From an uncultured archaeon (GTDB lineage: Archaea; Asgardarchaeota; Jordiarchaeia; Jordiarchaeales; Jordiarchaeaceae), in the NCBI GenBank assembly GCA_964510585.1, contig CAZECW010000140.1:22135-54134 (forward strand): 32,000 nt of DNA. Reading direction: 5' to 3'. Numbering within the stretch: the stretch's first letter is position 1; the number at the start of each line of letters is the position of its first letter. The position numbers and the translations under genes are program-made. Of the stretch, positions 11,737 through 22,797 are shown in pieces. The notes beneath the pieces are model-generated. The model had not been told where the DNA came from. It was given only the letters and a program-made list of their open reading frames with translations, and did no database searches.

Positions 11737-11861
11737 GGGCCCATAGCTCAGCCTGGTATGAGCGCCGCGTTACTCATACCCTACTAACAAGGGCATGAGG
11801 GCGAAGGCAAGCTATCCCAAAATCGCGGAGGCCGCGAGTTCAAATCTCGCTGGGTCCACCA
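11737..11861 (+). tRNA. tRNA-Ala(GGC) with two introns (11772-11805 at 33/34, 11810-11822 at 37/38) and a 4-nt anticodon exon; CCA encoded
   Basis: G3:U70 acceptor GGGCCCA/TGGGTCC-A-CCA, Ala-type D-arm GCTCAGCCTGGTATGAGC, stem CCGCG/CGCGG; spliced loop TT-GGC-AT. Confidence 0.85.
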
Positions 11862-12306: not shown

Positions 12307-12407
12307 TGGTGGACACTGCGAGATTTGAACTCGCGGCCTCCTGGATGCGAACCAGGCGCTCTTGGATACCGCTTGTTTGGCGGAATCTTCCACTGAGCTA
12401 AGTGCCC
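12307..12407 (-). tRNA. tRNA-Ala(CGC) with one 26-nt intron (12361-12386 at 22/23); CCA encoded
   Basis: G3:U70 acceptor GGGCACT/AGTGTCC, arm CCTGG-TT-CGC-AT-CCAGG, central helix TGGA/TCCA with outer CCGC/GCGG. Confidence 0.92.
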
Positions 12408-19864: not shown

Positions 19865-20242
19865 ATTTATGAAGATGCTTCAAAAACAAAACCAGTATGG
19901 AAGATATTAATTAAACAATCTGAAAGATGCTCCTGTCGATTGATAACATTATGTTTATGTATAAGTTAACACATGTCAAAAGGTTTCTTTGAATAATCGC
20001 TAACAGGAGGGGGTAAATTAGAAAAAAATCTAAAAGACAAACAATTATCCTTTCACATAATATGCAGAATTAAGTTTTACAATATTGCTCTACCATGACA
20101 GTTATTCTCCAGTAGGATCCTTTTACCCATTTGAATTAGTAATAATAAATAGCATTAAAAGATATGTCGGTACCCCAGTAATATGTTTTTAGAGCAGATT
20201 GTTTGAGCGTAAAAAAAGCGGGTTAAATAAGGGGAAGAAGGT

Positions 20243-20386
20243 TGGTGCAGGGCAGGAGAGTCTCGGGAGATGAAGCCAATCTCCATTCGAACTCCTGAAC
20301 CCCTACGGGACTGGATTTCTTAACTATTTGTTGTTTTTCTCTTTGATCTTGAGTCCAGCGCCGTTGACCTGCTTGGCTAGCCCTGC
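20243..20386 (-). tRNA. tRNA-Leu(CAA) with two introns (20317-20347 at 37/38, 20260-20285 at 59/60); CCA encoded
   Basis: Acceptor GCAGGGC/GCCCTGC-A-CCA, CTGGA-CT-CAA-GA-TCCAG, long variable arm TCCCGTAGGGGTTC; T-loop intron has TTCG/CGAG helix and GGAGAT/ATCTCC outer stem. Confidence 0.92.
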
Positions 20387-20602
20387 AACCATTTCTTCTA
20401 GGCTTTCTTTATGTTGTTTGTTTTAAATATTTGTCGGGTGGAGTCTATAAGGATTATTAATATATATTTAATGTTGCCATTTAAGGATTTAAAAGTCTTG
20501 GATATACTGTTAAAATTGCTCAAATAGTACAATAGTGGATACAGTTCAAATTTGAGCGTAAAAATATCTTCAATTTTTGTTTACATTTAGGAGGTGTAAA
20601 TT

Positions 20603-21058
20603 ATGAGAAGTGGTGAGGTACATAATAAAGGTGAGATTTCTCTTATGGATATTATTGGTGAAATTAGGAAGAACCCGAATATTAATAAGGCTGGCGCTAT
20701 TGCCTGTTTTATTGGGATTGTTCGTGGCGAGTCGCAGGAGGGAGTTCCTGTAGAAAAGCTAGAGTTGGAAGCATACGAGGAAAAGGCAAACGAAACACTA
20801 ACTGGTATCTGTGAGGATATTAAACGTAGGGAAGGTATAATTGATGTGCATATTCACCATAACGTTGGAGAATTTGGTGTAGGTGAGGAAGTGGTGTATG
20901 TGGTAGTTGCTGGAAAGCATAGGAAGGAATTGTTCTCGGCGCTTATCGATGCTGTGGAGAGATACAAGAAAGAAGCTCAAATATGGAAAGCTGCCTAGGA
21001 ATAAGCAGCCCATAAAAAGGAGTATACTTTAAGTGGAGCTCGCTGGGTGAAGGAATAA
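20603..21058 (+). CDS. moaE: Molybdopterin synthase catalytic subunit, spliced: join(20603..20988,21016..21058), 142 aa
   Basis: GAIACFIGIVR, LELEAY, HHNVG, GKHRKE; removing 27 nt restores ...AQIWKKEYTLSGARWVKE*; AGGAGGTG SD. Confidence 0.88.
20989..21015 (+). other. Candidate 27-nt BHB mRNA intron in moaE
   Basis: ATGG-[AA|A]-GCTGC-ctaggaataa-GCAGC-CCAT-[AA|A]; contains in-frame TAG and TAA. Confidence 0.82.
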
Positions 21059-21612: not shown

Positions 21613-22797
21613 TTAGGGTCGAGTTAGAGCGGCAATAAAGTTTCCGGGGGTTCCATGTAAATCTGGTTCGAATCGGATGGTTTTTCTTGCCTCTGAGAAG
21701 TAGCGTGATAGCCCTGGAGAGCCAAAGGTTTTGGATAGGTCTTTGAGTTCTAGTCCGAGTTCTTCTAGGCAATATTTTATGTTTAGTTCATTTTCTTCGA
21801 CTGTCAGGGTGCATGTGCTGTAGATCATTGTGCCTCCTGGCTTCAATAATTTTGCAGCGATCTTTAAAAATTGGCGTTGATATGCCGATGTGGATATGAT
21901 TTGTTTCTCGGTGGTGTTGTCATAGAGTTTTGGTCTTACTCCTATTGCGGTGCAAGGCGGATCTACTATGATTCTGTCCGCTTTAAGACATGGGTATTTT
22001 TTATTTAAGATTCGGGAATCTAAATTTATTGAAATTACGTTTTTGATTCCTAGGCGTTTTATGTGACTTCTGAGTTTTTCTATCTTTTTTTTGGAGCGGT
22101 CTAATGCAAGAATTTTGCCAGTGTTCTTCATTAATTGGGCAGTGTGTGTAGTTTTTCCTCCGGGCCCTGCGCACATGTCGATTATGAACTCATCTTGTTG
22201 TGGTTCAAGAAGTATGCTAGCAATAATTGCTGGGAGACTTTGAAAGTAAATTAATCCTTGGGAATAGATCCAAGAATCTTTCAGGTTGGGAACTTTGTAT
22301 ATGGACTTTGTTGTTTTCACCGCAACACCATTTTTTCTATTCATTATGTCCTTACTATCCATTACCGCCACCCCCTCTGCTACCTTTAATCCAGATCGAT
22401 CCTCAATTACGACAGGGTCATTTTTCTTTATTCTTTCGAGTTTAATTATTCCTGAAGAGTATAGGTCAGAGCCTTGCATTACAGCTTCACATGCGAATTT
22501 ATCTGCGATAACTTTTTTTCCTATTGCTTCTATTGGAAATGGACCTTTAACTTCTAGGAGAATGGCCTCACTAATGTCGGGGTGGATTTTAGCACTTATG
22601 GAAGACTGTTCTAATTCTCTTAACACATGGTTGGCGGATGTTAACAGAGTGTTTATTCTAATTGAGAAAATTCGGCTTGGTGTTTTCAATTCTTTTATAA
22701 TTTTTTCTGCCCTTGTGTATCCATAGTATTCGATTAGTCTAGAAACCACACTTGGAGAATAATTATACTGACTAGAGAGTTGGGCAGTCTCATCCAA
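21613..22797 (-). CDS. RsmB/NOP2 (Nsun) RNA m5C methyltransferase with PUA domain
   Basis: PUA (AVMQGSDLY), DMCAGPGGKT, VDPPCTAIG, YSTCT. Confidence 0.93.
   Translation of the reverse strand: MDETAQLSSQYNYSPSVVSRLIEYYGYTRAEKIIKELKTPSRIFSIRINTLLTSANHVLRELEQSSISAKIHPDISEAILLEVKGPFPIEAIGKKVIADKFACEAVMQGSDLYSSGIIKLERIKKNDPVVIEDRSGLKVAEGVAVMDSKDIMNRKNGVAVKTTKSIYKVPNLKDSWIYSQGLIYFQSLPAIIASILLEPQQDEFIIDMCAGPGGKTTHTAQLMKNTGKILALDRSKKKIEKLRSHIKRLGIKNVISINLDSRILNKKYPCLKADRIIVDPPCTAIGVRPKLYDNTTEKQIISTSAYQRQFLKIAAKLLKPGGTMIYSTCTLTVEENELNIKYCLEELGLELKDLSKTFGSPGLSRYFSEARKTIRFEPDLHGTPGNFIAALTRP

Follow-up and report, generated by a model that had tools for sequence, protein, structure and literature searches.

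We examined a window of 32,000 nt (positions 22,135 to 54,134 of the forward strand of contig CAZECW010000140.1, assembly GCA_964510585.1) from an Asgard archaeon of the Jordarchaeia/Freyarchaeia, in which the gene moaE appears to be interrupted by a 27-nt insert resembling a bulge-helix-bulge (BHB) intron of the kind found in tRNA genes. The open reading frame (ORF) at 20603 to 20998 of the + strand encodes MoaE (Pfam PF02391, E = 4.4e-28, profile positions 17 to 114 of 114), and its putative first exon shares 76 to 100% identity with 14 database clusters that carry a MoaE annotation. The ORF ends with ...EAQIWKAA followed by TAG (20996 to 20998), and a second in-frame stop, TAA, stands at 21002 to 21004; past that TAA, the same frame reads AAHKKEYTLSGARWVKE and then TAA. 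Deleting positions 20989 to 21015 joins the flanks as AA/A AAG GAG and gives the product IWKKEYTLSGARWVKE, with TAA at 21056 to 21058 as its stop. The C terminus of this spliced frame fits the MoaE family consensus across the WK-[KR]-E ... G..W segment. When the read-through translation is compared to the PDB, KEYTLSGARWV aligns to KEFALDGVEWV of MoaX, and a 9-residue gap corresponds exactly to the insert. An earlier reading of this DNA, made from the letters alone and called here the sequence-only reading, had described the ORF end (IWK-A-A-stop), the two in-frame stops, and the AA/A AAG GAG junction, all of which hold on re-reading.

The moaE gene is single-copy in this genome, which also encodes MoaA, MoaC, four ThiS/MoaD-like genes, and ten tungstopterin-type AOR-family genes; a working MoaE is therefore expected to be needed. 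Upstream of moaE, window positions 19865 to 20602 (about 740 nt) lack a long ORF, and an Rfam search relaxed to E <= 1 gave no match there.

The insert and the bases next to it can be folded into a BHB motif (Table 1). The local fold has a minimum free energy (MFE) of -16.1 kcal/mol (z = -2.65), and 3 of 200 shuffled sequences folded equally well. Each 3-nt bulge stands 3' of its own central-helix strand, the two bulges are on opposite strands, and 20989 to 21015 is exactly the stretch released if each bulge is cut after its second base. We compared this layout with that of tRNA introns by reasoning on tRNA numbering, in which the exonic 5' strand corresponds to positions 32 to 35 and the 3' bulge precedes position 39. 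On that basis the layout is that of the tRNA 37/38 intron type, in which the exon supplies the 5' strand of the central helix and the intron its 3' strand. Motifs with a 4-bp helix, 3-nt bulges, and a stem of at least 5 bp have a frequency of 4.4e-5 in the genome per position and length. With four equivalent cut registers in the A runs, one would turn up by chance at the boundaries defined by homology with a probability of ~2e-4. Rfam, searched at gathering score, returned no family match in the moaE-intron part of the window.

The motif, whose 3' site is weakly closed, is best classed as a relaxed (HBh'-like) BHB rather than as the strict hBHBh' form. Outside the 3' bulge, closure consists of the pair U20982-A21017 alone, followed by an internal loop and then GCUC/GAGU. 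We chose the relaxed class because the GCTC/GAGT pairing is separated from the motif by that loop and is broken in one relative (L105, which has GCGG), and because RNAalifold favours U20982-A21014, a pair that extends the central helix to 5 bp by taking the first A of the 3' bulge. Of the structure proposed in the sequence-only reading, the ATGG/CCAT helix, the AAA bulges, and the GCTGC/GCAGC stem stand, and the part left unsupported is the outer GCTC/GAGT pairing.

Table 1. Predicted features of the moaE locus (window coordinates) and similar inserts in other genes of the same genome (contig coordinates)
Feature	Coordinates	Strand	Basis or remark
Shine-Dalgarno-like GGAGGTG	20590-20596	+	Sequence reading; 6 nt upstream of ATG 20603
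moaE exon 1, 128 codons and first 2 nt of Lys129	20603-20988	+	Pfam PF02391 match
5' strand of central helix, ATGG, exonic	20983-20986	+	Pairs with CCAT 21010-21013; invariant in 12 of 12 sequences
5' bulge AAA, predicted cut after 20988	20987-20989	+	Unpaired in MFE and consensus folds
27-nt BHB intron with in-frame TAG 20996 and TAA 21002	20989-21015	+	Relatives, homologues, PDB gap
Inner stem h', 5' strand GCTGC	20990-20994	+	Pairs with 21005-21009
Intron loop, 10 nt	20995-21004	+	Sequence and length variable, 7-11 nt among relatives
Inner stem h', 3' strand GCAGC	21005-21009	+	Fold, 12-sequence alignment
3' strand of central helix, CCAT, intronic	21010-21013	+	Invariant in 12 of 12 sequences
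3' bulge AAA (AGA in two relatives), predicted cut after 21015	21014-21016	+	Fold, alignment
moaE exon 2, last nt of Lys129 then KEYTLSGARWVKE, stop TAA 21056-21058	21016-21058	+	MoaE C-terminus alignment
rtcB, presumed exon ligase gene	G000:C58:3762-3791 (L104)		30-nt hairpin insert, in-frame TGA; RtcB match otherwise full-length
gatE-like gene	G000:C18:16244-16273	-	30-nt BHB: GATG/CATT helix, AAA bulges, 9-bp stem
cbf5	G000:C18:27688-27718	-	31-nt BHB splitting GHAGTL-D/PKVTG; TruB_N match begins right past insert
TIGR00375 gene (L195)	G000:C180:1146-1173	+	28-nt frame-shifting BHB: ACGG/CCGT helix, AAA bulges, 6-bp stem

By fetching the DNA behind the 14 protein clusters (76 to 100% identity), we reached twelve distinct sequences, the window included, that carry an insert at the identical WK/KE site. 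The inserts are 24, 25, 26, 27, or 28 nt long. At the genus level, all six genomes carry the insert in the same place; the 14 loci from relatives in other families all read WKKE without interruption. Among 181 loci matched by the query, 167 have a contiguous WK-[KR]-E, 13 have the insert, and 1 has an in-frame TGA further downstream. The Glu of the motif, to which the second codon of exon 2 corresponds, is invariant in the intron-less loci (167/167). The sequencing runs that contain the sequence are mostly hot-spring metagenomes. The clade's public proteins (14 clusters, P0001 to P0014) have the unspliced form, 131 to 133 amino acids (aa) long, and several are named 'molybdenum cofactor biosynthesis protein MoaE'. 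Every intron variant (12/12) has an in-frame stop two to four codons into the intron (AA-stop or AAYD-stop), so a ribosome translating unspliced mRNA would stop immediately.

One intron-less homologue (L107, Ga0116200_10002081) has an in-frame TGA about 20 nt past the WK codons (KEHTS-stop-GAYWV), at a position where its close relative L011 has Arg. This TGA could be a sequencing error, the mark of a pseudogene, or a case of recoding.

Read in the spliced frame, exon 2 shows the pattern of a sequence under coding selection. Excision at the BHB-defined boundaries yields W-K-K-E-Y-[TS]-x-x-G-A-x-W-V-x-[ED]-stop in every insert-bearing sequence, and the last 14 codons stay in frame only when the insert so defined is removed. 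Across the 12 sequences, the numbers of variable sites at codon positions 1, 2, and 3 of exon 2 are 5, 5, and 11, of 13 each. The residues K, E, Y, A, W, and V never change while their codons differ synonymously, and 11 of the 12 sequences share the position of the stop codon, which is TAA, TAG, or TGA. Because inserts of 25, 26, and 28 nt shift the unspliced frame, read-through fails to explain the conservation of exon 2.

Variation within the insert likewise indicates that its RNA structure is under selection. In seven of the sequences, the 17 intron bases outside the loop are invariant, while in the same seven 81% of the third codon positions of exon 1 and 86% of its four-fold sites vary. 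The loop varies in 8 of 11 alignment columns, and also in length, when all 12 sequences are aligned. The sequence-only reading had suggested looking in relatives for compensatory changes in the stem, and the alignment keeps the BHB pairing in 12 of 12 sequences. The inner stem is 100% paired and has undergone five substitutions, all of which preserve pairing: pair 1 is G-C in 11 sequences and G-U in 1, and pair 3 is U-A in 9, C-G in 1, G-U in 1, and U-G in 1.

Genes for a splicing endonuclease and a ligase are present in the genome, which has two EndA-type genes (PF01974, with the catalytic-domain fold) and one RtcB gene (PF01139). The first EndA paralogue is closest to chain 3p1z_B of the Aeropyrum pernix tRNA-splicing endonuclease, which we take to be the catalytic subunit of that enzyme, and it keeps the His in GPGIDHAP. 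The second paralogue (G000:C126:19921-20181, L103:1192-1788) has Ser opposite the presumably catalytic His of Methanocaldococcus jannaschii in the aligned KEHS stretch, and by this comparison it is probably a structural, beta-like subunit. EndA in this organism is thus probably a two-subunit, (alpha-beta)2 enzyme of broad specificity. The (alpha-beta)2 form is described as the type with a broad substrate range (PMC5829648).

Taken together, these data make it very probable that the moaE insert is a tRNA-type BHB intron excised from mRNA, and that moaE in this archaeon is a two-exon gene. The pre-mRNA would fold locally, pairing exonic AUGG with intronic CCAU, with one 3-nt bulge per strand, a 5-bp intronic stem, and a variable loop. 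EndA would then cut each bulge between its second and third bases (after 20988 and 21015), and RtcB would join the exons. The spliced mRNA would encode a 142-residue MoaE with the invariant WK-K-E and the C-terminal strand ...G-A-R-W-V, while translation of unspliced mRNA would terminate two codons into the intron and give a 131-residue protein without the invariant Glu and the last strand. We infer the actual cleavage and ligation, and the roles of EndA and RtcB as their agents, from comparison of sequences. The sequence-only reading had argued that a full-length MoaE needs such an excision and that this would be an mRNA intron in a new gene and a new lineage; the site shared by 12 sequences, the conservation of exon 2, the covariation, and the presence of EndA and RtcB all favour that claim.

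Several observations weigh against excision by splicing. Covariation is modest, consisting of five substitutions in four sequences; the covariation score was reached by 5 of 500 shuffles, and the number of pairs changed on both sides by 97 of 500. The central helix is paired in all 12 sequences yet never varies, so it contributes no covariation, and the Ile-Trp codons place a further constraint on its exonic strand. The 3' bulge has no solid outer helix, and the break in the outer pairing of L105 adds to this. No 142-aa MoaE exists among the clade's database proteins, entries that are gene calls from DNA. Two run searches found no sequencing run matching the locus that is recorded as RNA. Runs X10 and X20 are labelled metatranscriptomic and flagged as probably DNA; a 3.5-kb X10 contig from a related strain keeps a 24-nt insert, but contigs drop rare forms and the run is probably DNA, so that this contig speaks neither for nor against splicing.

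The moaE insert has counterparts elsewhere in the genome, where at least four further genes are interrupted in a similar way (Table 1), the gene for the presumed ligase RtcB among them. The insert of the gatE-like gene interrupts the motif I-D-E/T-P-P, and its GatB_N match contains both TAG and TAA. The two halves of the TIGR00375 gene match different parts of the NCBIfam profile, exon 1 corresponding to profile positions 3 to 236 and exon 2 to positions 250 to 374; Pfam has no family for either half. The four genes were confirmed one by one; a genome-wide scan for BHB motifs, as proposed in the sequence-only reading, was lost in the background. Looking for BHB excisions that join two open frames, we counted 2294 matches with the correct cuts and 2355 to 2429 with cuts shifted by 1 to 2 nt. 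The background from adjacent genes on the same strand swamps the signal, and for this reason we give no number of coding-sequence introns from the scan.

That at least four more genes of this genome are interrupted, rtcB among them, suggests that the proliferation of introns known from the tRNA genes of Freyarchaeia has extended to mRNAs. The sequence-only reading had also proposed a tie between molybdopterin synthesis and tRNA-splicing activity. We found no specific support for that tie, and because at least four unrelated genes carry similar introns, general intron proliferation fits better than a switch specific to moaE. Within the window, Rfam finds two tRNA genes, at 11737 to 11858 (+) and 12310 to 12407 (-); their spans of 122 and 98 nt, compared to a 71-position model, imply intervening sequence inside. 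ARAGORN reports no tRNA in the whole window.

We weighed four other explanations of the moaE insert. In the first, there is no excision: the truncated 131-aa MoaE is in use or MoaE function has been lost, the hairpin is a leftover, and the downstream sequence is decaying or serves to regulate the next gene. In the truncated ORF, the Pfam MoaE profile is indeed still matched from 17 to 114 of 114 and the WK motif keeps its Lys, and the public gene calls are all 131 to 133 aa. A decaying or noncoding downstream sequence would not be expected to vary mainly at third positions, to change synonymously at six invariant residues, and to keep its stop in place, as exon 2 does; nor does a leftover hairpin account for structural intron bases that are far more conserved than synonymous sites. 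Truncation would also remove the Glu that all 167 homologues share, in an organism whose only moaE stands beside the other pathway genes and ten AOR genes. We therefore consider this explanation very unlikely.

Translational bypassing could lead to the same protein without any change to the RNA. A ribosome with peptidyl-tRNA-Lys would leave AAA at 20987 to 20989, land on AAA at 21014 to 21016, and continue with AAG GAG. Because the product would be identical, the coding conservation of exon 2 cannot discriminate between bypassing and splicing, and identical AAA triplets precede the hairpin and exon 2 in the window and in 9 of 11 other insert-bearing relatives. The hairpin starts directly past the take-off codon and has a stop in its loop, and the insert resembles the byps of mitochondria and T4 gene 60 in being short, in containing a stop and a hairpin, in having identical flanking codons in most copies, and in the outcome for the protein. 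It differs from them in that 2 of 12 variants, L185 and L188, have no matching pair of codons for take-off and landing: AGA stands where the ribosome would land, and the only AAA nearby lies out of frame, whereas the rule of cutting after two bases still gives AA/A. The CCAT/ATGG helix and the covarying stem have no stated role in hopping, and the helix between exon and intron, together with the covariation, points to a signal for RNA processing.

The inserts in other genes of the same genome bear on bypassing as well. The cbf5 insert splits the codon G/AT, for the Asp of GTLDP, which is not contiguous in the DNA, and the insert of the gatE-like gene is preceded by GAA while TAA stands before exon 2; hopping therefore cannot work for either. 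Translational bypassing is not known in archaea. For moaE, we judge bypassing highly improbable and prefer splicing.

It is also possible to imagine that the RNA is excised by an agent other than EndA and RtcB, such as another structure-specific nuclease with a ligase, or a self-cleaving mini-element. The weak closure of the 3' site by the outer helix would fit such an agent. However, the geometry is exactly that of EndA (a 4-bp helix, 3-nt bulges on opposite strands, cuts past the second base, and the correct junction), and relaxed motifs are known substrates of two-subunit EndA, the cbf5 motif being relaxed too (PMC10485636). A hairpin of 24 to 28 nt with a freely varying loop leaves no room for a ribozyme, and the Rfam search at gathering score gave no match. 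Nothing calls for a nuclease other than EndA, and we attach very little probability to this explanation.

An assembly or sequencing artefact, or an insertion specific to one strain, is almost certainly not the explanation: the 12 distinct insert-bearing sequences come from independent assemblies (NCBI, JGI, ENA, and Logan), and DNA-run contigs from two other studies (X4 and X7) span the site with no differences and retain the insert, which answers the concern about artefacts raised in the sequence-only reading.

Two further candidates were rejected outright. Stop-codon read-through or an altered genetic code is out, as the sequence-only reading had held for simple read-through, given that TAG and TAA are both present and that inserts of 25, 26, and 28 nt shift the frame. 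A repeat or mobile element is also out, since a genome search tolerating up to 3 mismatches finds the hairpin at a single place.

Splicing of moaE mRNA by the tRNA splicing machinery would have precedents in other archaea. The BHB intron in the cbf5 pre-mRNA of Crenarchaeota was reportedly described by Watanabe in 2002. The only BHB intron reported in a coding sequence is that of cbf5, and HVO_1309 has one in its 5' untranslated region (PMC7714728; PMC10485636; PMC2738675). Like the moaE insert, the crenarchaeal cbf5 intron is short, lies inside an archaeal coding sequence, has a relaxed BHB, occurs in hosts with two-subunit EndA, and regularly escapes gene callers (Yokobori 2009, PMC2738675). 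The cbf5 intron differs in that it interrupts the gene of an RNA-modification enzyme in Crenarchaeota, whereas the intron described here would interrupt a metabolic gene, moaE, in an Asgard archaeon and lies 14 codons from the stop. Splicing of cbf5 by the tRNA splicing machinery has been proven by experiment, while that of moaE is proposed from comparison. HVO_1309 of Haloferax volcanii provides a second case in which the archaeal splicing endonuclease acts on an mRNA and not on tRNA or rRNA (PMC7714728; PMC10485636). There, however, the intron is in the untranslated leader, the reading frame is uninterrupted, and the enzyme is of the homodimeric alpha2 type (PMC10485636).

Closer relatives provide a different kind of comparison. 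In Freyarchaeia/Atabeyarchaeia, 92 to 95% of tRNA genes have introns (PMC11291895). The non-canonical tRNA introns of Freyarchaeia and Atabeyarchaeia described there share with the moaE insert the lineage, the small size class, the BHB logic, and the presumed enzyme. The introns that this source describes, and those of other Asgard archaea in bioRxiv 10.64898/2026.10.13.758758, are in tRNA genes, whereas the moaE insert is in a protein-coding gene. The passages of PMC11291895 on introns and splicing concern tRNA genes only, with no protein-coding introns, and a text search of the bioRxiv study, which deals with Asgard tRNA introns, turned up no 'mRNA'. A full-text literature search for BHB introns in Asgard mRNAs found nothing.

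Eukaryotes offer a more distant parallel. HAC1 and XBP1 mRNAs are spliced by Ire1 cleavage followed by ligation by Trl1 or RtcB, RtcB being the metazoan ligase. As proposed here for moaE, a short intron is excised by proteins and without a spliceosome, and the C terminus of the protein is altered. HAC1/XBP1 splicing differs in that it uses another nuclease, recognizes twin stem-loops and not a BHB, and is regulated by stress.

One extension of the proposal goes further, and we think it unlikely: that EndA/RtcB introns in protein-coding genes, rtcB included, are found across the Jordarchaeaceae and are spliced conditionally, so that the balance of truncated and full-length proteins acts as a post-transcriptional switch. 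If that were true, how far metabolic and RNA-processing genes are expressed would depend on the capacity for splicing, and a close prokaryotic relative of eukaryotes would have a layer of protein-catalysed mRNA splicing.

The moaE intron itself, if spliced as proposed, would add a metabolic gene and an Asgard lineage to the established mRNA substrates cbf5 and HVO_1309. The annotation of this MoaE would then be systematically truncated, at 131 to 133 aa, and gene callers would need a BHB-aware step for these genomes. Much of the interest of the moaE intron is that it appears not to stand alone in this Asgard genome but to be one of several of its kind, and it may make protein-catalysed mRNA splicing tractable in the group of archaea closest to eukaryotes.
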